A DNA stretch of 64,000 bases from a virus. Taxonomy: Duplodnaviria; Caudoviricetes. The translations under genes were made by a program, and so were the position numbers. The number at the start of each line of letters is the position of its first letter. Position 1 is the first letter of the stretch. The stretch lies in the IMG/VR virus record IMGVR_UViG_3300029798_000001; one strand, 5' to 3'. Shown here one piece after another: positions 5,517 to 56,562 of the stretch. Below the pieces are notes generated by a model. It was not told where the DNA came from. It saw only the letters and a program-made list of their open reading frames with translations, and ran no database searches.

Positions 5517-6110
5517 ATGTCTGGACTGATCCCGTTTGTTATTGAAAAATCTGGTAATTCAGAAAGATCATTTGATATTTTTTCTCGGTTATTAAAGGAT
5601 AGAATTATTTTTGTGAATGGCACAATCTCTACAGAAATGAGTCATGTTGTTGTGGCGCAATTATTATTCCTTGAATCAGAAGATCCCGATAAGGATATTT
5701 TTATGTATCTAAACTCTCCCGGCGGAGAAGTGACGGCTGGGATGGCGATCTACGATACCATGAACTTCATCAAACCCGATGTCTCAACAATAGTGCAAGG
5801 ACAATGTTGTAGTATGGGTAGTTGCCTAGCACAAGCAGGTGCCGCAGGTAAACGACTAATTCTGCCCACAGCCCGTACAATGATTCATCAACCGTCGGGT
5901 GGCGCACATGGGCAAGCAACAGATATTCAGATTCAAGCACAAGAAATACTTAAAATGAAGAAATACCTAACAGAGATTTATGTCAAGCATAACTCTGCTG
6001 GCAAAACATTTGAGCAGTTAAGTGCTGACATGGAACGAGATTTCTTTATGTCAGCAGAAGAAGCTGTAGCATACGGCCTGGCCGATAGGATTATTTCTAA
6101 GCGTGACTGA
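5517..6110 (+). CDS. clpP: ATP-dependent Clp protease proteolytic subunit
   Basis: [24 protein letters not shown] (Ser), MIHQPSGG (His), [11 protein letters not shown]. Confidence 0.95.
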
Positions 6111-7422
6111 TAAAAACATATTCTGTAATGCTCCTTGGTATGAATTACAAATTTATTGGGATGGTAGTTTAGGATTTTGCTGTCAAGAAGATCATAAATT
6201 ATATCCTGATAATCTAAGTAGGCATTACAACGTTAGTCAGATGACCATTGCAGAATGGTTTGATAGTGAACCTATGCGAGCAGCACGTCTAGGCATGCTA
6301 GGATCTAAGCCTAACAGTATTTGCCGCCGGTGCTATCATGAACAAGAGCATAACGGTACCAGCCGTAGGCACAAGTCCAATCAAAAAAGTGTTATCTTTA
6401 CTAAGACAGCATTTAATGAAAGTTATTTACAAAGCCCGGGCTATACAAAGTTTGAATCAAGCCGTACCAATCAAGGTGCATATGATGGCATGCCTATCGA
6501 CTTACATATCGACTTGGGTAATTACTGTAACCTTGCTTGTAAAATGTGCAGGCCGCAGGCCAGTAGTGTAATTGCTGCACAGGAAGTTAAATGGGGTAAC
6601 AAGGATGCTCTACAATACGTAGGCACCGATTGGACACGTGACGAAGCAGTGTGGTCACGTGTATTGAACGAATTAGCCAGTATTCCAAATCTTAATAACA
6701 TCCATTTTATGGGCGGCGAAACACTAATTACCAAGCGATTTGAAGATTTTGTTGACTACATGATTGCACGTGGGCGCACAGATTTACATTTTAGTTTTGT
6801 TACCAATGGCACTACATTTAATGAGTCCTTGCTCGACAAGCTCACGCAGTTTAAACGAGTTGGTATTGAGGTAAGCATAGAAACAACAACAGAACATAAT
6901 GCCTATCAACGTCAAGGAACCAATACTGAGCAGGTATTAAAGAACCTTGGTCGTTACCTTGAATATTGCAATGGCGATAATATAACACTAACAGCAAGAC
7001 CTGCAATCAGCGCATTGACTATTGGGTATTATCATACCTTGTTGCGGTATTGCATTGAACGTAAAATAATTGTTAAAAGTTTATGGGTTAGTAAGCCAGA
7101 TTTCTTAAATCCAAACATACTGCCTGCAACAATAAAACAAGAATATATTTTAAATTATAAAAAGTTAATTGCAGATTACAATTTAGAGTCAGCCGATCAC
7201 TTAGTTGACTATAACGAAAGTGATCCAAATGAAATTACCCGCATAATTGCAAGCCAGGCTGACCAATGCATCAATATGCTAACATCGCCAAGTCCTCCAG
7301 ACAGCAAAGAACAATTAAAGACTATGGTTGCACAATGTCGTCGTTGGGATGACATATATGGATACGATGCTCGCCGATTATATCCTGAATTTACTACAAT
7401 ATTAAATGATTATGGCTATTGA
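6103..7422 (+). CDS. Radical SAM protein with N-terminal SPASM/twitch-like Cys cluster
   Basis: CNLACKMC (CxxxCxxC), FMGGETL, VTNGT; N-terminal CNAPW...CC...CRRC. Confidence 0.9.
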
Positions 7423-8843: not shown

Positions 8844-9019
8844 TGACAAATCCTATTCCGTTAAATGGTATGTTTGTTACCCCAAATAGTCTTGCTGATC
8901 TGGTCGAAATGATTGACCAAATTGGCACGCCAGAAGAACAGCGTATGGCATGGCTAGGTGCAAGTATGGCCCTAAATCTAGCTCATATGCTACACGAAAA
9001 ATCTTTAATGACGGTGTAA
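8843..9019 (+). CDS. 58-aa small protein ending LMTV (not in track)
   Basis: TAATG-coupled; MTNPIPLNGMFVTP...EKSLMTV. Confidence 0.55.
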   Translation: MTNPIPLNGMFVTPNSLADLVEMIDQIGTPEEQRMAWLGASMALNLAHMLHEKSLMTV

Positions 9020-9031
9020 TGCAAGTGTAAT
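9014..9031 (+). promoter_or_regulatory. Pho-box-like 11-bp-spaced direct repeat
   Basis: GTGTAAT-gcaa-GTGTAAT versus PhoB consensus CTGTCAT-N4-CTGT(C/A)A(C/T). Confidence 0.4.
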
Positions 9032-9048
9032 AATATACATACTAAATA

Positions 9049-9118
9049 GAAATGCGGGCACAAGATAAGGTGTCGCTAGATCCGTAACTAGCACTAAAGA
9101 GCCCTGGCTCTTTTTTTA
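9049..9118 (+). ncRNA. Candidate small RNA (hairpin plus intrinsic terminator) upstream of plcP-like gene
   Basis: After TAAATA 9043; GTG-TC-GCTAG/ATCCGTAA/CTAGC-AC hairpin, then AAAGAGC-CCTG-GCTCTTT and T-run. Confidence 0.45.
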
Positions 9119-9120
9119 TG

Positions 9121-9138
9121 GCGTAATAAAATTGTCAT
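9121..9138 (+). promoter_or_regulatory. Pho-box-like element
   Basis: GCGTAAT-AAAA-TTGTCAT, close to PhoB consensus, 33 nt upstream of plcP-like ATG. Confidence 0.5.
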
Positions 9139-9171
9139 ATCTTTTTCTCTGGCATTGCAGTAAATAAGCGT

Positions 9172-9972
9172 ATGCCAGAAAAAACTTACCGAAGTATTTT
9201 TATTAGCGATGTTCATCTAGGCACTCGTGACTGTAAAGCCGGAGCACTCAACAACTTTCTCAAAAACAACACCTGCGAAACATTATATCTTGTAGGCGAT
9301 ATAATCGATGCGTGGAAAATTCAACAGAATAAATGGCGTTGGAAACAAAGCCACACCAATGTGATCCGTCGCATCATGGGTCATGCCAAGCGTGGTACTC
9401 GTGTGGTGTATGTGGCTGGTAACCATGATGAATTCCTCCGCCCACTGATACCATTAGGTATTGGATTTGGTCTTATCGAAGTGGTAAATCAAACAGAACA
9501 CACAGGAGTAGATGGCAGGAATTATTTGGTCACACATGGTGATTTGTTTGATGGTATTACAAGACTGGCACCTTGGTTAGCATTTTTAGGTGACAAACTC
9601 TACGATTTTGTCTTAGACTTAAATTCAAAGTTTAATGCTGTGCGTCATAAACTTAGATTGGGCTACTGGAGTCTAAGCAAATATCTCAAATACAAAGTCA
9701 AAAAAGCTAGTGACTTTTTGTTTCAATTTGAACGAAATCTTGCCGCATATTGCAAAAAGCGTGGCTACGATGGTGTGATATGCGGGCACATACACCATGC
9801 AGAAATTAAAGAGATTGATGGCGTTACATATATGAATGATGGAGATTGGGTCGAATCAATGACAGCATTGGTCGAACATCACGACGGGCGTTGGGAGATA
9901 GTAACTTGGACACAGGAGACTGATGATGTGGTTGCTGATAATACTGGCAGTGAACATAAACAATCCTGCTGA
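9172..9972 (+). CDS. plcP: PlcP-like metallophosphoesterase (COG2908/LpxH-like; phospholipase C-type)
   Basis: SDVHLG, LVGDIID, GNHD, THGD, CGHIH, NDGDWVES; GNHD rather than LpxH GNRD; paired with GT4. Confidence 0.75.
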   Translation: MPEKTYRSIFISDVHLGTRDCKAGALNNFLKNNTCETLYLVGDIIDAWKIQQNKWRWKQSHTNVIRRIMGHAKRGTRVVYVAGNHDEFLRPLIPLGIGFGLIEVVNQTEHTGVDGRNYLVTHGDLFDGITRLAPWLAFLGDKLYDFVLDLNSKFNAVRHKLRLGYWSLSKYLKYKVKKASDFLFQFERNLAAYCKKRGYDGVICGHIHHAEIKEIDGVTYMNDGDWVESMTALVEHHDGRWEIVTWTQETDDVVADNTGSEHKQSC

Positions 9973-10099
9973 TCAACCCGGACGGATAACCATTGAATTT
10001 GATAATGAACAGGCTTGTGTTCGTGCTCAGCATAGTGTAAAATATCAATTCAAATTTGAAGGATTCAAGGTCCAATCACAATGCCAAAAACTATATTAG
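9923..10099 (+). CDS. 58-aa small exported/membrane protein (not in track)
   Basis: CAGGAG SD; MMWLLIILAV...ACVRAQ...QCQKLY, overlapping both neighbours. Confidence 0.4.
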   Translation: MMWLLIILAVNINNPADQPGRITIEFDNEQACVRAQHSVKYQFKFEGFKVQSQCQKLY

Positions 10100-11088
10100 T
10101 AGTAACTGACAATGTTCCAAATCAAATCAATGGAGTGGTCACAACTTTCAAAGCCCTGGAAGACCACTGTAATAGTAACGGGCATCGTATTGTATATATT
10201 AATCCCAGGGAGTTCCCTCATTTTGCTTGCCCTGGTTATCCTGAAGTTAAAATCTGCTGGCCACACGGCATTTCAAAGAAGATTAAGGCGTTACAGCCGG
10301 CGTATATTCACATTGCCACCGAAGGACCAGTAGGCTTATTCGCGAGGTGGTGGTGTGAGCGCAATCATATTCCTTATAATACTAGTTATCATACTGACTT
10401 TGCCAAGTTCCTAAAGAAAATGTATGGCATGCCAGAGTCTTGGACTTGGTGGTATCTTCGTTGGTTCCATAAGAATAGTCACCGGGTATTGGTTACAACC
10501 GAAAGCATTAGACAAGAATTAGTTGCACGAGGTTTTCAAAATCTGCGGGTATGGACCCGGGGAGTAGATAGAACCGTCTTTAACAGCAGTCACCGTGGTG
10601 AAACTGTGGCAGGCCGTCCTATCCTACTGTCAGTAGGCCGTGTTAGTGTTGAAAAAGGTCTAGATGATTTTTGTCGATTAGAAATTCCTGGTGCTACTAA
10701 AATTGTAGTAGGCGATGGCCCATACCGTAGAGATTTAGAACGCAGATATCCCGAGATACATTTTGTAGGAACAAAAACCGGAACGCAGTTGGCCCGTTAC
10801 TATGCTCAAGCCGATGTATTTGTATTTCCAAGTCGTGCTGATACCTTTGGAGTGGTCAACATTGAAGCCCTAGCCTGCGGAACTCCGGTAGCGGCCTATC
10901 CTGTTGCTGGACCCAAGGATATCGTTGAACCAGGCCTGACTGGATTCCTTAACGATAATCTACAATCGGCAGTAGAACAGTGTATGACACTAGATCGTTC
11001 CTGGGTAGAAGATGCTAGCCTAAAATGGACTTGGGCAGAGTGCTGGCATATATTTGAAGAAAACCTAATAGACTGTTCTGTAGTCTAA
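10081..11088 (+). CDS. GT4 glycosyltransferase, Agt-like (glycosyl-diacylglycerol synthase)
   Basis: ILVVTD..PNQINGVVTT, HIATEGPVG, SVGRVSVEKGLDDF, FPSRADTFGVVNIEALACGTPV. Confidence 0.8.
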   Translation: MPKTILVVTDNVPNQINGVVTTFKALEDHCNSNGHRIVYINPREFPHFACPGYPEVKICWPHGISKKIKALQPAYIHIATEGPVGLFARWWCERNHIPYNTSYHTDFAKFLKKMYGMPESWTWWYLRWFHKNSHRVLVTTESIRQELVARGFQNLRVWTRGVDRTVFNSSHRGETVAGRPILLSVGRVSVEKGLDDFCRLEIPGATKIVVGDGPYRRDLERRYPEIHFVGTKTGTQLARYYAQADVFVFPSRADTFGVVNIEALACGTPVAAYPVAGPKDIVEPGLTGFLNDNLQSAVEQCMTLDRSWVEDASLKWTWAECWHIFEENLIDCSVV

Positions 11089-11172
11089 AAACAACGGTTT
11101 AAAACCCCTTTAAATAGGGGTTTTTTATGAGTTGACCAAATGGTTGACCCAAAATGGACGATAGCTTATAAT
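11078..11172 (+). repeat. Terminator-promoter cassette, copy 1
   Basis: CTGTAGTCTAAAAACAAC, hairpin with TTAAAT loop, then TTGACC-N17-TATAAT; copy 2 at 33991. Confidence 0.7.
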
Positions 11173-13306: not shown

Positions 13307-16300
13307 TTATATACTAATTGATTCTGTTACTTCGGTAGCAAGCAATCGATTTACATATCCTTTGATCATCTCTAGTTCAAAGGATTGTTCTTGTAATCGT
13401 AATCCAGAAACAAATCGACTTTCAATTTCAGCAAACTCCGACAAGTTTCTGTTGACTACAACATCCTTAACAAACTTCATATCCGTAATAGGATAGATAT
13501 TATTAAAGCGGCAACTTGTTAATATGCTGTCAGCAAATAGGTTAATATGGTGATCGGTGATTATGTTATAGTGTTCAATCGTGTCCCAAATTAGCTCACG
13601 TTTAACTAGAGTAATTTCTTGTCCGTGTTCATTTACTGTGACGGTACCAACTGGTGTATCATCACTCATTGGATATGTAAATGTGCCAGCCTGTTTGTTA
13701 AAGATTCTATGCTGATCAAATGTACGCAGTCTAGTTCCGTCACTAAATGTTAACTGGTTATACCGAGTTCCAGTTTCGCCACGCTTGATCCATAATGGTC
13801 GGGCTTGTGCATATTGTCCTAGATCAAAGTTCCATGTCAATAATAAATCACCATTGTTGATATCTTCGATTGGTTTGTAAGTTCCGTCAGCTAGGCTGAT
13901 CATTGTTCCTTTTAGTAAACATAGACCTGAAAATCCAACCTCGGGGCCGGAATAATATGTGCCTGCATTGGTAGTAACATAGGCGTATACAGTAAATGGT
14001 TGGTCTGATGTGCCGGTGCTAATTGTAATTTTTTCTGTGCCCGGGATATTGGCAAGATTACCAGCAACATATTTGTCAACAGTGCTACCGGAAGTGACAA
14101 TAACACCATATTCTATGACCGGGGCCACATTGGCCACCAATACATTGGCGTATCCTGATCCACCGCTGGTTTCGTATTCACTACTGGTTTTAGTAATTGT
14201 AATTGATTGTATAGTAGGCAGAATATTTTGACTAGGAACCGATGCTGCACCCACACCAGTGAGTTGACTGCCGTTACCAAACAAGTAAGAACCAGTGATG
14301 TTACCTACAGCACTAATGTTGCCTGATGTAGTTAGGTTACCGGTATTATCAAATGTCCACGAACCTTGTAGGCCATTGCCAGTGTAGGTGCTGATGTTTA
14401 TAGTGCCATCTGAACCATTGGTTATGCAACCAGCATAGAATCCGTTGGCATAGAAACTGGTCAGGCTAACTGGGCTACCGTTCCCGCCATCTAGGCCAGT
14501 CCAGCCTTTACCAGCACTACCCAAACGTCCACCTTGTGGGGTTGTCAATTCGCCTGCGGAATCAAATATCCAGGATTTAGCACCAGTAGCAGTTTGTATT
14601 GTAACTAAATTACCGGCCGCTAAGGTCGCTGAGTTACCTGAATAGTCTAAACCTAAATTTACAGCAAATGGATCAAGAATGTTGGCAGTTATGCCTGCTG
14701 TGCCTGCTGTGCCCAAAGTCCATACAGCCCCGCCACCTGGAATAGATAAGTTACCGGTGGTGTCAAAAACCCATTGTTTCTCTAATGGATCGGTACCAAT
14801 ATTAGCGTTTAGCGTTATATTACCATATGATCCAACATAACCTGGTAATGCGTTGCCGCCTAGCTCAATTCCACCGGTCCAAAATTGGCCGTCGCTGTTC
14901 AGCAATAATCTATGTCCGTTGTAGCCTAACCAAAGTCCTTCTTCTGGATCGCCAAGAGCACTAGTAATCGTGCCGCCGCCTGGTAATGTCAACAGACCAG
15001 CGTTGTCAAATGTCCAGTTCTGATATCCAGTATTGACCCCATCGCCAGTGGTTAGTTGAATAGGAGTCCAAGAATTAATTGCCAAATTAGCAAGGTTGTC
15101 AACAACATAATGATTTAACGCACCTGGAATAGATAAGTTACCGGTGGTGTCAAATGTCCAAGTTGCGTTGCCATAGCTTGTTGTCAGGGTTATATTGCTA
15201 GGTGTGCCATCTCCAGCATAGATATCGCTTGTAAAGATACCAGGAGCATTGAGATAATCGGCATACAAGGTCATCTCACCGCCATTGTCTACATATCGTA
15301 GAGTAGAATCGGCGCCAATGTTGCCAGCTACATTAATCTGAATATCACCTGCGTTACCTGCGGCACCCGCACTACCTGATCCACTATAAGGCTGACCATT
15401 GGCGTAGTTGATACTACTTGAGTTGCTGGGCAAAGTTAAATTACCAGTGTTGTCCAGCGTCCAACTTGCAGTTATACCTGATCCTGCACCTGTTTGTAAA
15501 GCAATATTACCATAGGTGTTGTTTACTTGAATAGCATTGGCATCACCATTAGCCGGAAGAACCACGGCCGCTGTTGCAGCATGTGACAAGTCTGCATTTT
15601 CTAAATAGATGCCATTGAGATCATAAATGGCATCACCGCTGAATCCAATGTTGCCGGTACTGGTTACAACGCCAGTTAATTGACTACCGTTACCGATAAA
15701 ATAATTTGCCGTAACATTGCCAGCTGTATTTAGATTTGCACCGCGGACATTACCGCTAGCACTTACTATGCCACCGGTTATTACATTCCCACTGGTTACG
15801 TTACCAGAAACGGCTAACGCATTTGTAGTATTATTAAACGTAAATCCGGCAGTTCCGCCAAATGCACCAGCATTGTTGTATTGAACTTGTGTATTAGCGC
15901 CGGCTGGAGTAGCATTGCCAGATCCACCGGTTTGTGCTGTCCAAGTTAAATTACCTGTACCATCTGTTTGCAATACATAACCGTTTGAGCCTCCTGTTAT
16001 ATGTAGATTACCAACAGCGATTGTTAATGTACCTATATTACTAATATTGGCCGTGCCAATATTAGCATAGGAAGTGTTTAGATATTGTGTATATGTGTTA
16101 AGCCAAAGTAAACTAGGTGAACCTAAATTGCGAATACGAGTTTGATCTGGAACTACGTGGGCGTTTCCCTGTATAACACCAATACCATTAGGATTTAAAA
16201 TTAAATTACCGTTGGTATTAGTGGTTAAAATACTGTTGTTGGCTATTTGAATATTAGATCCAACTGGGCCAGAGGTAAAAACATTGGCAAAGTTTAAGTT

Positions 16301-16384
16301 TACATCATTAAATGCGGTGCGTAACGGGTCGCCTGTGCCATCATTTGGTAGTGCGCCGATGTTGATTACAATGGGTTGTGACAT
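13307..16384 (-). CDS. Tail fibre/baseplate-attached fibre with C-terminal Hint domain
   Basis: Start MSQPIVINIGALPNDGTGDPLRTAF after late promoter; Gly/Asn/Thr repeats; C-terminal CLLKGTMISLADG...YNIITD...LFADSILTSC. Confidence 0.85.
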   Translation of the reverse strand: MSQPIVINIGALPNDGTGDPLRTAFNDVNLNFANVFTSGPVGSNIQIANNSILTTNTNGNLILNPNGIGVIQGNAHVVPDQTRIRNLGSPSLLWLNTYTQYLNTSYANIGTANISNIGTLTIAVGNLHITGGSNGYVLQTDGTGNLTWTAQTGGSGNATPAGANTQVQYNNAGAFGGTAGFTFNNTTNALAVSGNVTSGNVITGGIVSASGNVRGANLNTAGNVTANYFIGNGSQLTGVVTSTGNIGFSGDAIYDLNGIYLENADLSHAATAAVVLPANGDANAIQVNNTYGNIALQTGAGSGITASWTLDNTGNLTLPSNSSSINYANGQPYSGSGSAGAAGNAGDIQINVAGNIGADSTLRYVDNGGEMTLYADYLNAPGIFTSDIYAGDGTPSNITLTTSYGNATWTFDTTGNLSIPGALNHYVVDNLANLAINSWTPIQLTTGDGVNTGYQNWTFDNAGLLTLPGGGTITSALGDPEEGLWLGYNGHRLLLNSDGQFWTGGIELGGNALPGYVGSYGNITLNANIGTDPLEKQWVFDTTGNLSIPGGGAVWTLGTAGTAGITANILDPFAVNLGLDYSGNSATLAAGNLVTIQTATGAKSWIFDSAGELTTPQGGRLGSAGKGWTGLDGGNGSPVSLTSFYANGFYAGCITNGSDGTINISTYTGNGLQGSWTFDNTGNLTTSGNISAVGNITGSYLFGNGSQLTGVGAASVPSQNILPTIQSITITKTSSEYETSGGSGYANVLVANVAPVIEYGVIVTSGSTVDKYVAGNLANIPGTEKITISTGTSDQPFTVYAYVTTNAGTYYSGPEVGFSGLCLLKGTMISLADGTYKPIEDINNGDLLLTWNFDLGQYAQARPLWIKRGETGTRYNQLTFSDGTRLRTFDQHRIFNKQAGTFTYPMSDDTPVGTVTVNEHGQEITLVKRELIWDTIEHYNIITDHHINLFADSILTSCRFNNIYPITDMKFVKDVVVNRNLSEFAEIESRFVSGLRLQEQSFELEMIKGYVNRLLATEVTESISI
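14734..15154. repeat. Exact 34-bp direct repeat inside tail-fibre gene
   Basis: CACCTGGAATAGATAAGTTACCGGTGGTGTCAAA at 14734-14767 and 15121-15154 (FDTTGNLSIPG). Confidence 0.9.
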
Positions 16385-16518
16385 ATTGGGGATCCTGGTT
16401 AGCCTTTTGAAGTATTTATGGCTAGATGCTCGTCCTAAAGGCATTGCGTATTGTGCAACTTGGTGTTATAATTATTTCATGCTGTTGTTAAACAGCGTTT
16501 AACAGAGAAAGGTATCAA

Positions 16519-18373: not shown

Positions 18374-19297
18374 ATGAAAATAGCCCTTCTATCGGACGCA
18401 CACCTTGAATTTCAACCTCTCGTTATTAACAATGATGAGAATGCCGATGTGTTAATCCTAGCCGGAGACATCTGTGTAGCTGCACATTTAAAAGATGCCA
18501 GCCCTACCTATGCAAAAGTGCTGGCAAAAGAGTATCGTCAGTTCTTTGATCATGTATGCAAAGAATTTCCGCATGTGGTTTACATTTTAGGAAACCATGA
18601 ATTTTACAATGGTGACATCAAACACACCTACAACATCCTCAAAGAGCATCTTGACTACGGTAACCTACATATTCTTGAAAAAGAAACATGGACGCATCAA
18701 GGTCATACCTTTGTTGGCGGCACCTTATGGACCGACATGAATCGACTTGATCCGCTAACTTTGATGCATACACAAGGTTCCATGAATGACTTCCGTGAAG
18801 TGCTTAACAGTAATCGCATGGTGGTGCGTAATGTTCCCATCTACGAGCGGAATCCTTTATGGACCGATGACGGCCGGAACGGCGGACAGTATAACCGAGA
18901 TGCTACTGGTGCTATGATTAATATTGGTTACAAGAGCAAGGAAGAACCAGCTCGTTGGACTCCAGAGGATTCAGCAATGGATCACGCACGGATGTTGGCG
19001 TATATTGATCATGTTACCCGCGAACCCGGTAGCTATATTGTAGTGGTTCATCATGCACCCAGCAGTCAAAGTATAGCAGAAAGATTCAAACACGATACCC
19101 TGATGAATGGTGCGTTTAGATCTGAACTGGATGAGTTCATCATGGATCGTCCGCAGATTCGATTGGTATGCCATGGCCATATGCACAACAACTCGAATTA
19201 CTGGATTGGTGAGACTAGGGTGGTCTGTAATCCCAGAGGCTACGCAGGATATGAAGATCAAGCAGAATGGTTTAAACTACAATATATCGAGGTATAA
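18374..19297 (+). CDS. Calcineurin-like metallophosphoesterase
   Basis: SDAH, LAGDI, LGNHE, HHAP, CHGHMH, NPRGY. Confidence 0.9.
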   Translation: MKIALLSDAHLEFQPLVINNDENADVLILAGDICVAAHLKDASPTYAKVLAKEYRQFFDHVCKEFPHVVYILGNHEFYNGDIKHTYNILKEHLDYGNLHILEKETWTHQGHTFVGGTLWTDMNRLDPLTLMHTQGSMNDFREVLNSNRMVVRNVPIYERNPLWTDDGRNGGQYNRDATGAMINIGYKSKEEPARWTPEDSAMDHARMLAYIDHVTREPGSYIVVVHHAPSSQSIAERFKHDTLMNGAFRSELDEFIMDRPQIRLVCHGHMHNNSNYWIGETRVVCNPRGYAGYEDQAEWFKLQYIEV

Positions 19298-36903: not shown

Positions 36904-37134
36904 ATGTTTGATGAACTTGATCTCACTATCAGAGCTGCTATCCATAATCTCATGTTGGTTTTATATGAGCAAGGAATAACGGAAATCCATACAGGAGGAA
37001 TGATGCGCCTACTTGGAGTATCTGATGAAGTCGCCCAACAGTACGACGACGAGCGAGTAATTTTAGATGACAATTTTGTTAAATATGTAGAGGAAATTAA
37101 CACTCCTAGACCAGCAGACCAACCGTTACATTAA
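36904..37134 (+). CDS. Hypothetical late protein
   Basis: TAAGTA promoter at 36891. Confidence 0.65.
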   Translation: MFDELDLTIRAAIHNLMLVLYEQGITEIHTGGMMRLLGVSDEVAQQYDDERVILDDNFVKYVEEINTPRPADQPLH

Positions 37135-55068: not shown

Positions 55069-55806
55069 CTATTCGTCGGCGTAGAGTTTGAGAATATCCT
55101 TGATCATTGGGTGACGTTGAACGTCACGATCATCAAGATTACATACAGAAATACCGTTTACACCTCCTTTCTGTAATCTTTCGCATAAATCTACGAGGCC
55201 GTTACTGCCCTTACTGTGGTCTGCTTGTTCAGCATCACCTGTTATTACTATCTTACTACCTTCCCCAATACGGGTCATAAGCATCAATACCTGTGCTTTT
55301 GAGCTATTTTGAAATTCGTCAGCAATAATATACGCACTTTTGAAAGTACGGCCCCTCATAAATCCCAAGGGTGCAATCTCGATGGTCTGATCTTCAAGCA
55401 TGGCAGCAATATCCTGTGGCCTGTAATACTCTCTAAGTATATCAGTTAGTGGGCGTACCCACGGATCCATCTTTTGATTTAAGTCGCCTGGTAAAAAGCC
55501 ATGCTTCTCACCTTCTACTCCAACTGCTGGTCGCGTTAATACAATGCGATCTACTTCTCCGGCTCTGAACGCCTTTACTGCTGCTAGCATGGCCAAATAT
55601 GTCTTTCCTGTTCCTGCAGGCCCTGCTGTAACGACAATATGCTGACTATCGTCTTGTAAAGCCAATACTAACTTTTCCTGATTTCTAGTTCTAGGAACTA
55701 TGTTAATCGGGCGTTGTTTTACTGGTTTTACTTGATCGAAGCGAATTGTATTTTCTTGGTATGTCATACGGCTTTTTTGTGATTTTACTGCTCGTTGCTT
55801 ACTCAT
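55069..55806 (-). CDS. phoH: PhoH-family ATPase
   Basis: GPAGTGKTYLA, LTRP, GFLPGDL, FMRGRTF, ADEFQN, TRIG, GD..Q.D. Confidence 0.95.
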   Translation of the reverse strand: MSKQRAVKSQKSRMTYQENTIRFDQVKPVKQRPINIVPRTRNQEKLVLALQDDSQHIVVTAGPAGTGKTYLAMLAAVKAFRAGEVDRIVLTRPAVGVEGEKHGFLPGDLNQKMDPWVRPLTDILREYYRPQDIAAMLEDQTIEIAPLGFMRGRTFKSAYIIADEFQNSSKAQVLMLMTRIGEGSKIVITGDAEQADHSKGSNGLVDLCERLQKGGVNGISVCNLDDRDVQRHPMIKDILKLYADE

Positions 55807-55983
55807 GTAATCTCCGTTGTTGAGTTGAGTTAAAGTAACAGCGACATGCTGTTATAGATATTTACGGACTTAGATCTAAAAGTTTAGTATGGGTACTAAA
55901 TGATTTAAAAACGGCATAAGTATTAGGCTAGGCTGTAAATTAACCAAACTCTTGCTAGCGATCAACTAGCCATAAATAACTAT

Positions 55984-56562
55984 ATGGATCAAGAAATCTT
56001 TAAAAATCATCAGGATTATTGGCAGGTGGCAGAAAACATCCGCGACATATACCTTAGCGAAGGAAGTTTGCTCACGCTGTTAGACTTTGAACGGGTATTA
56101 GATGAGCTAGATATCTATGCCTTTAAAAACTGGGCGGTTGGGGAGCTAGTACAAGGCCCTACGGTTACTAAGTATCGTGTAAGTTGCATATTCATGTGGC
56201 CTGAAAAACTCATGCCAGACCCACGCGGCGCTCGCAGACTATTACCATTTGACTGCAAGGTCGAATACAAAAAAACCAACATGAAGATTCCAGTTAAAAT
56301 TATGGACCCGTCTGATTATCGTCCTGGTACCCATAAAGCTAAGATTACAGAAAAGAAAATCTGGCTAGTAGAAATTACCATGCCCAAAGCTCTAATGAGC
56401 GATATACGCACAGGTAGTATAGAATTAGAAGATCAAGATATTGATCTTGCAGACCTAGATGATGCATCCGAACAGGATTTAGGTAAAGATGAATTCCAGG
56501 ACCAACAACAAGCTCAAAATGCACAACAATCACTTAGCCAACCTCAACTCCCTGCTTTCTGA
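55984..56562 (+). CDS. Hypothetical late protein
   Basis: TAAATA at 55973. Confidence 0.7.
   Translation: MDQEIFKNHQDYWQVAENIRDIYLSEGSLLTLLDFERVLDELDIYAFKNWAVGELVQGPTVTKYRVSCIFMWPEKLMPDPRGARRLLPFDCKVEYKKTNMKIPVKIMDPSDYRPGTHKAKITEKKIWLVEITMPKALMSDIRTGSIELEDQDIDLADLDDASEQDLGKDEFQDQQQAQNAQQSLSQPQLPAF

Follow-up and report, generated by a model that had tools for sequence, protein, structure and literature searches.

The locus described here lies at positions 9172-11088 of a 64,000-nucleotide stretch of DNA (the window) from IMG/VR record IMGVR_UViG_3300029798_000001, a virus of the class Caudoviricetes. It contains three genes on one strand: one for a phosphoesterase resembling the bacterial phospholipase C PlcP, one for a family 4 glycosyltransferase (GT4) resembling Agt, and a 57-codon gene between them (Table 1). 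In Sinorhizobium, Agrobacterium and SAR11 under phosphorus starvation, PlcP cleaves phospholipids to diacylglycerol, from which Agt makes glucosyl- or glucuronosyl-diacylglycerol. A preliminary description of the locus proposed a two-gene pathway of this kind in a phage. The open reading frames (ORFs), the GNHD motif at residues 83-86 of the first product and its NDGDWVES tail were all present as it had claimed, and so was a phoH gene elsewhere in the window. It had also placed the two same-strand genes in one operon, and terminator-like hairpins were found on either side of the pair, with none between plcP and agt in a search for such hairpins. The two-gene unit is extended here by the 57-codon gene, which straddles both enzyme genes and had been missed. 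The results support a predicted bacterial PlcP-Agt pathway in a phage carrier, together with a phage-specific extra gene, as the new element of this locus.

Table 1 Features of the plcP-agt locus, its control region and phoH in the window
Feature	Position	Strand	Description
Distal Pho-box-like direct repeat	9015-9032	+	TGTAATG-N4-TGTAATA; 10/14 matches to CTGTCAT-N4-CTGTCAT; score 16.5
TAAATA after distal repeat	9043-9048	+	Gap of 10 nucleotides from the repeat; followed by an 11-codon mini-ORF and hairpin
Terminator-like hairpin	9096-9113	+	7-base-pair stem, 4-nucleotide loop, T-run; lies between the upstream unit and the plcP promoter region
Proximal Pho-box-like direct repeat	9122-9139	+	CGTAATA-AAAT-TGTCATA; 10/14 matches; score 16.5; 21 nucleotides before TAAATA
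TAAATA	9161-9166	+	5 nucleotides upstream of the plcP ATG; candidate -10-like or T4-late-like promoter core
plcP-like gene	9172-9972	+	266 residues, intact ORF; Pfam Metallophos, 2e-10; LpxH-fold, predicted intracellular phospholipase C
Conserved small gene	9926-10099 (58 codons from ATG 9923)	+	57 residues; AGGAG Shine-Dalgarno sequence at 9914-9918
agt-like gene	10081-11088	+	335 residues; Glyco_transf_4 (PF13439) and Glycos_transf_1 (PF00534); predicted UDP-sugar:diacylglycerol glycosyltransferase
Terminator-like hairpin and T-run	11106-11120	+	Closes the operon
phoH	55069-55806	minus	PF02562, 1e-71

Products of the three genes

The first gene product contains the complete set of metallophosphoesterase motifs (D13-x-H15, G42-D43-x-x-D46, G83-N84-H85-D86, H122 and G205-H206-x-H208), with NDGDWVES at residues 222-229. 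Residues D13/H15, D43/D46, N84/H85/D86, H122 and H206 were invariant across 75 viral and 80 bacterial copies, and H208 was kept in the 75 viral and 79 of the 80 bacterial copies. GNHD was present in every one of these proteins, at a position where the LpxH alignment has GNRD, the arginine of which touches the substrate phosphate in LpxH. The protein scored 46.8 bits against LpxH equivalog NF003743 (cut-off 134) and 35.5 bits against LpxH equivalog TIGR01854 (cut-off 190), and solved LpxH chains matched it at E ~1e-4 only. At E <= 1e-30, an exhaustive profile-free search yielded 914 representative clusters, with identities to the phage protein that are typically 40-55%. A scan of species-representative genomes gave 80 named proteobacterial loci with 50-57% identity, including Limnohabitans, Acidovorax, Rubrivivax, Sphingomonadaceae, Rhodospirillaceae, Caulobacter, Roseibium (51%) and Pseudomonas (57%). 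Two of the bacterial genomes (G001 and G002) encode a true LpxH elsewhere, which scored 333 and 219 bits, compared to 57 and 42 bits for their plcP-like relatives. In an LpxH-rooted tree, very long branches set the plcP-like family apart and the phage proteins nest inside that family. The preliminary description had set the phosphoesterase apart from LpxH by its GNHD motif and had named phylogeny as a check; in the tree, LpxH falls far outside the family as the outgroup, and the equivalog scores, the GNHD motif and the coexistence with true LpxH in bacteria agree.

The AlphaFold model of the plcP-like protein (predicted local distance difference test, pLDDT, 86.7) found its best fold matches in structures of LpxH with lipid X, at template modelling (TM) scores of 0.55-0.6 and 17-24% identity. 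Searches of AlphaFold DB Swiss-Prot and the PDB with this model gave LpxH only among the close matches, and no named PlcP. Two long helices are inserted at residues 128-196 of the model, at the position of the LpxH lipid-binding cap, which fits a lipid-handling enzyme. No N-terminal signal sequence was present on inspection of the protein, and it is thus expected to act from the cytoplasmic side. The likeness to LpxH extends over the fold, the metal-binding motifs, the helical insertion at the lipid-binding position and the automatic annotation, whereas the phage protein differs in missing the equivalog cut-offs, in having GNHD for GNRD and in falling in a separate clade. This evidence supports its assignment to the LpxH-paralogous PlcP family, not to LpxH, with PlcP activity as the predicted function.

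For the second enzyme, the published reference is the SAR11 glycosyltransferase GTcp, a protein of ~334 residues whose clade is marked by the motifs GRVAxEKN and FPSxTDTFG (bioRxiv 10.1101/2021.03.25.437072). GTcp has a His104-Asp256 dyad in which Asp takes the place of the usual GT4 Glu and is not exchangeable for it, and three further residues, T162, R163 and W320, were crucial by mutagenesis and docked at the diacylglycerol site (same study). The agt-like protein has GRVSVEKG at 186 and FPSRADTFG at 249. Its H104 and D254 are the counterparts of the GTcp dyad, and T159, R160 and W318 those of the other three residues. These Agt/GTcp signature positions were conserved among 81 viral and 51 bacterial GT4 copies: the positions of R160 and W318 were Arg and Trp, respectively, in 81/81 viral copies, and that of D254 was Asp in 72/81 viral and 40/51 bacterial copies, the remainder having Glu. 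The phage protein was 38-45% identical to plcP-linked bacterial GT4s, one of which belongs to Roseibium, as does GT_la of the GTcp study (bioRxiv 10.1101/2021.03.25.437072). The best curated NCBIfam matches were far under their cut-offs, and among solved proteins the nearest in sequence is a tetrahydrobiopterin glucosyltransferase. The resemblance to Agt noted in the preliminary description is borne out by the published signature residues, which support a GT4 of the Agt/GTcp clade with predicted diacylglycerol glycosyltransferase activity.

The 57-codon gene is absent from the gene-caller lists. Its ATG at 9926 follows an AGGAG by 7 nucleotides, and it shares the last 47-50 nucleotides of plcP and the first 19 of agt. 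Among related loci, tblastn located it in 33, where it occurs in 24 distinct variants of constant length, 33-72% identical to the copy in the window. Eight residues are invariant (W3, D17, P19, C32, K44, F45, F48 and C54), including two cysteines. In the part that overlaps neither neighbour, the ratio of nonsynonymous to synonymous substitution rates (dN/dS) had a median of 0.15, and 93% of pairs were below 0.5, which identifies the ORF as a protein-coding gene under purifying selection. The protein matched no Pfam family, and its PHROG matches were weak (5e-4) and to proteins of unknown function; a fold search matched no solved structure, and BFVD gave one uncharacterised phage protein (E 0.02). 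The gene was not found by tblastn of the bacterial loci, and phage lineages whose two enzyme genes overlap or abut are without it, which suggests an accessory, phage-specific insert.

Promoter region and phosphate context

The preliminary description had reported Pho-box-like sites upstream of the pair. We scanned both strands of the window (~128,000 positions) with a matrix built from relatives only, and the two direct repeats in Table 1 were the two best sites of the entire 64 kilobases (kb). In 20 shuffles of the window the best score averaged 13.0 and reached 16.1 at most. We then compared CTGTCAT-N4-CTGTCAT, a consensus taken from the literature and not from the loci analysed, to 49 distinct upstream regions of related phage loci; it matched at 10 or more of 14 positions in 12 of them, against 3.2% of random windows of the same loci (p = 4e-8). 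The best match to this consensus in relatives stands at a fixed distance from the ATG. The genes farther upstream differ among related phage loci, and homology with the window starts at the box. The relatives share the box consensus TGTAACA-N4-TGTAAYA with TGTCAT variants, that is, 7-base-pair (bp) direct repeats with an 11-bp period. The reported sites were upheld as the top-scoring ones of the window, conserved and phased in relatives.

The sequence TAAATA-N2-9-ATG occurred in 31/49 of the related upstream regions, and 23/49 had the full order of box, TAAATA and an ATG 2-9 nucleotides on. The gap between box and TAAATA was 10 nucleotides in nine loci and 20-21 in 13; the two spacing classes differ by an 11-bp indel, or one helical turn. 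Both gaps are found in the window, 10 nucleotides at the distal and 21 at the proximal box. In E. coli pho promoters the box replaces the -35 element and sits ~10 bp upstream of the -10 element; TAAATA is a poor match to a sigma70 -10 element. The phased gaps are the geometry expected of an OmpR/PhoB-family activator bound on one helix face, with a -10-type element downstream of it. If transcription starts a few bases past TAAATA, the mRNA would be leaderless or nearly so. TAAATA occurs 22 times per strand in the window compared to ~47 expected from composition, i.e. it is not over-represented, and its meaning therefore depends on its position only. A sigma54 reading of TGGCATTGCA beside TAAATA was ruled out by the wrong GG-to-GC spacing. 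The pair probably sits behind what looks like a host phosphate-starvation switch, with PhoB as the predicted binder.

Genes for phosphate acquisition were also found next to the pair in relatives. The gene pstS, the product of which has a signal peptide, immediately follows agt in loci L020 (7110-8114), L021, L029/L030, L037, L051 and L052 and immediately precedes plcP in L022/L023 and L065. Many bacterial plcP-like homologues have GTCAT-N6-GTCAT repeats upstream.

Several other elements of this type were observed in the window. The distal box with its TAAATA, mini-ORF and hairpin (9015-9120) may give rise to a short transcript regulated by phosphate, or may act as an attenuator before the plcP promoter. 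A Pho-like repeat at 785-802 (TGTCATT-AAAC-TTTAATA, score 15.0, fourth in rank) stands 20 nucleotides before a TAAATA, upstream of small ORFs and a 185-residue ORF at 1109-1666; the block TGGCA(A/T)TGCA is common to this site and the plcP promoter. Another at 37083 on the minus strand (TTTAACA-AAAT-TGTCATC, score 16.3) is on the opposite strand to the local genes and is followed by no TAAATA. The site at 55973-55986, divergent from phoH, is besides plcP the sole plus-strand TAAATA that stands 2-9 nucleotides before the ATG of a real ORF (55984-56562).

Carrier, linkage and history of the pair

The window encodes a T4-type clamp loader (phrog_168, 1e-72) in addition to phoH, and its other genes are mostly orphans. 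None of 50,697 phage records matched it in a near-identity nucleotide search. With the GT4 as query, at least 161 viral contigs in IMG/VR contained the module, which is also found in thousands of metagenome proteins. Window DNA was detected in runs of seven studies, the majority of freshwater, lake or pond water; one was labelled seawater and one a viral metagenome. We searched five large pair-bearing records (317-453 kb; two with direct terminal repeats, CheckV 89-100%), and the T4 Gp23 major capsid gene was present in 5/5 (E ~1e-98). Judged from its sequence, the carrier of the plcP-agt pair is an uncultured T4-related jumbo phage of lake water. Matches to PF03721, the N-terminal domain of UDP-glucose/GDP-mannose dehydrogenases, were observed in three of the five large records (G004-G006; loci L014, L017 and L020) at E 1e-12 to 1e-14, and these phages might also supply UDP-glucuronate, a possible Agt donor.

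Linkage was counted over 80 viral loci retrieved via the GT4. The phosphoesterase lay directly upstream of it on the same strand in 78/80; the other two loci end at a contig edge, and the pair is adjacent in 78/78 testable IMG/VR loci. In bacteria, an Agt-like GT4 lay downstream of the phosphoesterase, on the same strand and within ~500 nucleotides, in roughly 50 of the 80 named proteobacterial loci, which were retrieved via the phosphoesterase. This position of agt after plcP is the commonest plcP neighbourhood, the 'type 2' arrangement of bacteria described by Sebastian et al. (PMC4796936), who took BLASTP E < 1e-40 against a characterised member as their criterion for PlcP. Among themselves, the characterised PlcP proteins are 46-47% identical and the Agt proteins 35-41% (PMC8528852), and the identities of the phage proteins to their bacterial homologues (50-57% for PlcP, 38-45% for Agt) are thus inside the known family spread.

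In the GT4 tree a single split, supported at 100%, divided the viral copies from all 51 bacterial ones. For the phosphoesterase, a constraint that grouped the viral proteins together, with that of Pelagibacter phage Mosig among them, was not rejected, and the constrained tree was slightly better (approximately unbiased test, p = 0.53). Median dN/dS was 0.07 for plcP-like and 0.16 for agt-like genes. Flanking genes are phage-like and variable while the plcP-agt cassette persists. The linkage, the tree results and the low dN/dS together indicate an old acquisition held under selection in T4-like phages, not recent contamination. In some relatives plcP is ~80% identical to the window copy and agt only ~51-56%, which points to very different evolutionary rates of the two genes.

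Proposed function and alternatives

The bacterial PlcP-Agt pathway is represented by Sinorhizobium meliloti SMc00171, Phaeobacter MED193_17359, SAR11 HTCC7211 PB7211_983/PB7211_960, Pseudomonas aeruginosa PA3219/PA3218 and the Agrobacterium tumefaciens Agt Atu2297. The predicted phage version has in common with it the enzyme families, the order of plcP before agt and an upstream repeat of Pho-box form. It differs in its virus-specific clade, in its T4-like jumbo carrier, in the 57-codon gene of many phage copies, in half-sites that are mostly TGTAAC/TGTAAT and in a promoter that abuts the start codon. The pstS and phoA genes of cyanophages and pelagiphages (P-SSM2, S-PM2d), which are controlled by host PhoB, are a similar case of T4-lineage phages with a host-derived Pho-regulon gene and a Pho-box-like site. 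These genes import or release external phosphate, whereas PlcP-Agt would recycle the membrane phosphorus of the cell itself and, unlike pstS or phoA, would require a second enzyme for the bilayer to stay intact.

Homologues of the phosphoesterase in cultured phages are Mosig_00120 of Pelagibacter phage Mosig EXVC030M (52% identical, divergent from pstS) and QPX48289 of Synechococcus phage S-SRM01 (34% identical), both annotated as UDP-2,3-diacylglucosamine hydrolase/diphosphatase. An Agt-like GT4 was not found by tblastn within ~5 kb (Mosig) or ~4 kb (S-SRM01) on either side of the gene; these phages would use a host glycosyltransferase or use diacylglycerol otherwise.

We consider it fairly probable that the phage PlcP-Agt operon serves to convert host phospholipid to glycolipid for phosphorus supply, under probable PhoB control. 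In this self-contained operon of the plcP-like, 57-codon and agt-like genes, host PhoB would bind the two 7-bp direct repeats, one or two helical turns upstream of the TAAATA that abuts the start codon, and switch on transcription under phosphate stress. The PlcP-like enzyme, a predicted cytoplasmic, membrane-associated and Mn/metal-dependent phosphodiesterase, would cut the phospho-head groups off host glycerophospholipids (phosphatidylethanolamine and phosphatidylglycerol of the inner membrane) and leave diacylglycerol. The Agt-like enzyme, a predicted retaining GT4, would then move glucose, galactose or glucuronic acid from a host UDP-sugar to diacylglycerol, by which the bilayer would be refilled with phosphorus-free glycolipid. 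Host phosphatases would then split phosphate off the released head groups, and phage DNA synthesis would draw on it, the genome being ~330 kb. We infer the substrate, the products, the binding of PhoB and a fitness benefit under phosphorus limitation.

In many lakes and ocean regions, phosphorus limits the growth of bacteria as well as the production of phages, and the known phage phosphorus genes pstS, phoA and phoH serve uptake from outside the cell. A swap of phospholipid for glycolipid would open the internal membrane reservoir to the phage. By a rough estimate, a 330-kb genome contains ~6.6e5 phosphorus atoms, and a small Gram-negative cell whose surface measures ~1.6 square micrometres and that has three phospholipid leaflets contains a few million phospholipids; membrane phospholipid phosphorus would then amount to several phage genome equivalents, similar to the phosphorus of the host chromosome. 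If true, this would be a complete internal phosphorus-recycling pathway, of which no description in a virus was found in the papers searched. A broader proposal is that lake T4-like jumbo phages carry a mobile 'viral Pho island' in which a promoter read by PhoB drives a phospholipase C, a diacylglycerol glycosyltransferase and a 57-residue protein confined to phages, often with pstS alongside. The island would sense host phosphorus and recycle membrane only when phosphate is short; we regard the chances of this proposal as evenly balanced.

Several points weigh against a phosphorus-supply operon under PhoB control. Membership in the two enzyme families was assigned by published motifs, gene order and similarity to bacterial homologues that are themselves uncharacterised. 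PlcP yields phospho-head groups, not free phosphate, and the further phosphatase that is needed was not identified in the window. The prevailing phage half-sites are not TGTCAT, and direct repeats of 11-bp period fit OmpR/PhoB-family regulators generally, not PhoB uniquely. Predicted Pho boxes of cyanophage S-PM2d often fail to bind PhoB, and such predictions are unreliable without binding assays (PMC10976474). Finally, TAAATA resembles the core of a T4-type late promoter, and if it is one, transcription would be independent of sigma70 and PhoB.

This last point bears on a reading in which the enzymes act as proposed and the benefit is not phosphorus, for example a block to superinfection, altered sensitivity to membrane-active agents or grazers, or the tuning of lysis. 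Two studies describe bacterial lipid remodelling as altering phage attachment and predation (PMC9938194, PMC9457565), a late-promoter-like TAAATA would give phosphate-independent expression, and pstS was not found in the window itself. The conserved and phased repeats of Pho-box form and the pstS genes beside the pair in relatives point instead to phosphate control, and we judge a benefit other than phosphorus to be unlikely, although the two payoffs are not mutually exclusive. It is also conceivable, and in our view quite unlikely, that the pair acts on other substrates, the phosphoesterase on a different pyrophosphate or phosphodiester, lipid-linked or of a nucleotide, and the GT4 on an acceptor other than diacylglycerol such as lipopolysaccharide, teichoic-type polymers, protein or phage DNA. 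The GT4 family is huge and has many acceptors, the best curated matches are far below cut-off, a tetrahydrobiopterin enzyme is the nearest solved relative by sequence, and the families were assigned via mostly uncharacterised homologues. Against this, the residues for activity and the diacylglycerol site (H104, T/S159, R160 and W318) and the Asp-for-Glu exchange are conserved, and both the partner and the order of the genes match the PlcP-Agt operon of bacteria.

The database label of the phosphoesterase would make it a viral lpxH, an auxiliary gene for the lipid A of lipopolysaccharide. The Joint Genome Institute (JGI) calls close relatives 'UDP-2,3-diacylglucosamine pyrophosphatase LpxH', as the Mosig and S-SRM01 annotations do in similar terms, LpxH is the nearest solved fold, and surveys count lpxH among viral lipopolysaccharide genes. 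This reading is very improbable: scores are three- to five-fold under both equivalog cut-offs, GNRD is replaced, bacteria with a relative hold a true LpxH as well, LpxH stands on a long separate branch, and the partner gene is an Agt-type GT4, not LpxB. Hardly credible is an origin of the pair in bacterial DNA that was misbinned or misassembled into viral contigs. Some short IMG/VR contigs are of uncertain origin and the genes are of bacterial type, but complete records with terminal repeats hold both the pair and Gp23, the viral GT4 clade stands apart from every bacterial copy, phage-like variable flanks surround a constant cassette, and the window itself has a clamp loader and phoH.

In full-text literature searches, no paper was found that describes PlcP or the PlcP-Agt pair in a phage, in agreement with the preliminary description, which knew of no such pair characterised in phages. 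In two virome papers, automatic annotation placed lpxH with the viral genes for lipopolysaccharide, and it is probable that the 'viral lpxH' of auxiliary metabolic gene surveys has been assigned to lipopolysaccharide synthesis in error. Little is known of lipid remodelling in infected cells, according to a 2025 study of low-phosphorus virocells (PMC12282109). If phages with this operon remodel their hosts as proposed, glycolipid signals of phosphorus-stressed waters may come partly from infected cells.

Three further genes of the window were observed outside the locus. A second, unrelated metallophosphoesterase is encoded at 18374-19297 on the plus strand (phrog_1649, 2e-47). At 6103-7422 on the plus strand lies a gene for a radical SAM protein in which a SPASM-type domain (PF13186, residues 8-78) stands ahead of the core domain (PF04055, residues 138-294). 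The gene at 13307-16444 on the minus strand encodes a fibre-like protein of 1045 residues that is rich in Gly, Asn and Thr and has no PHROG match; its C-terminal part starts with a Cys-containing stretch resembling a Hint/intein-type domain.

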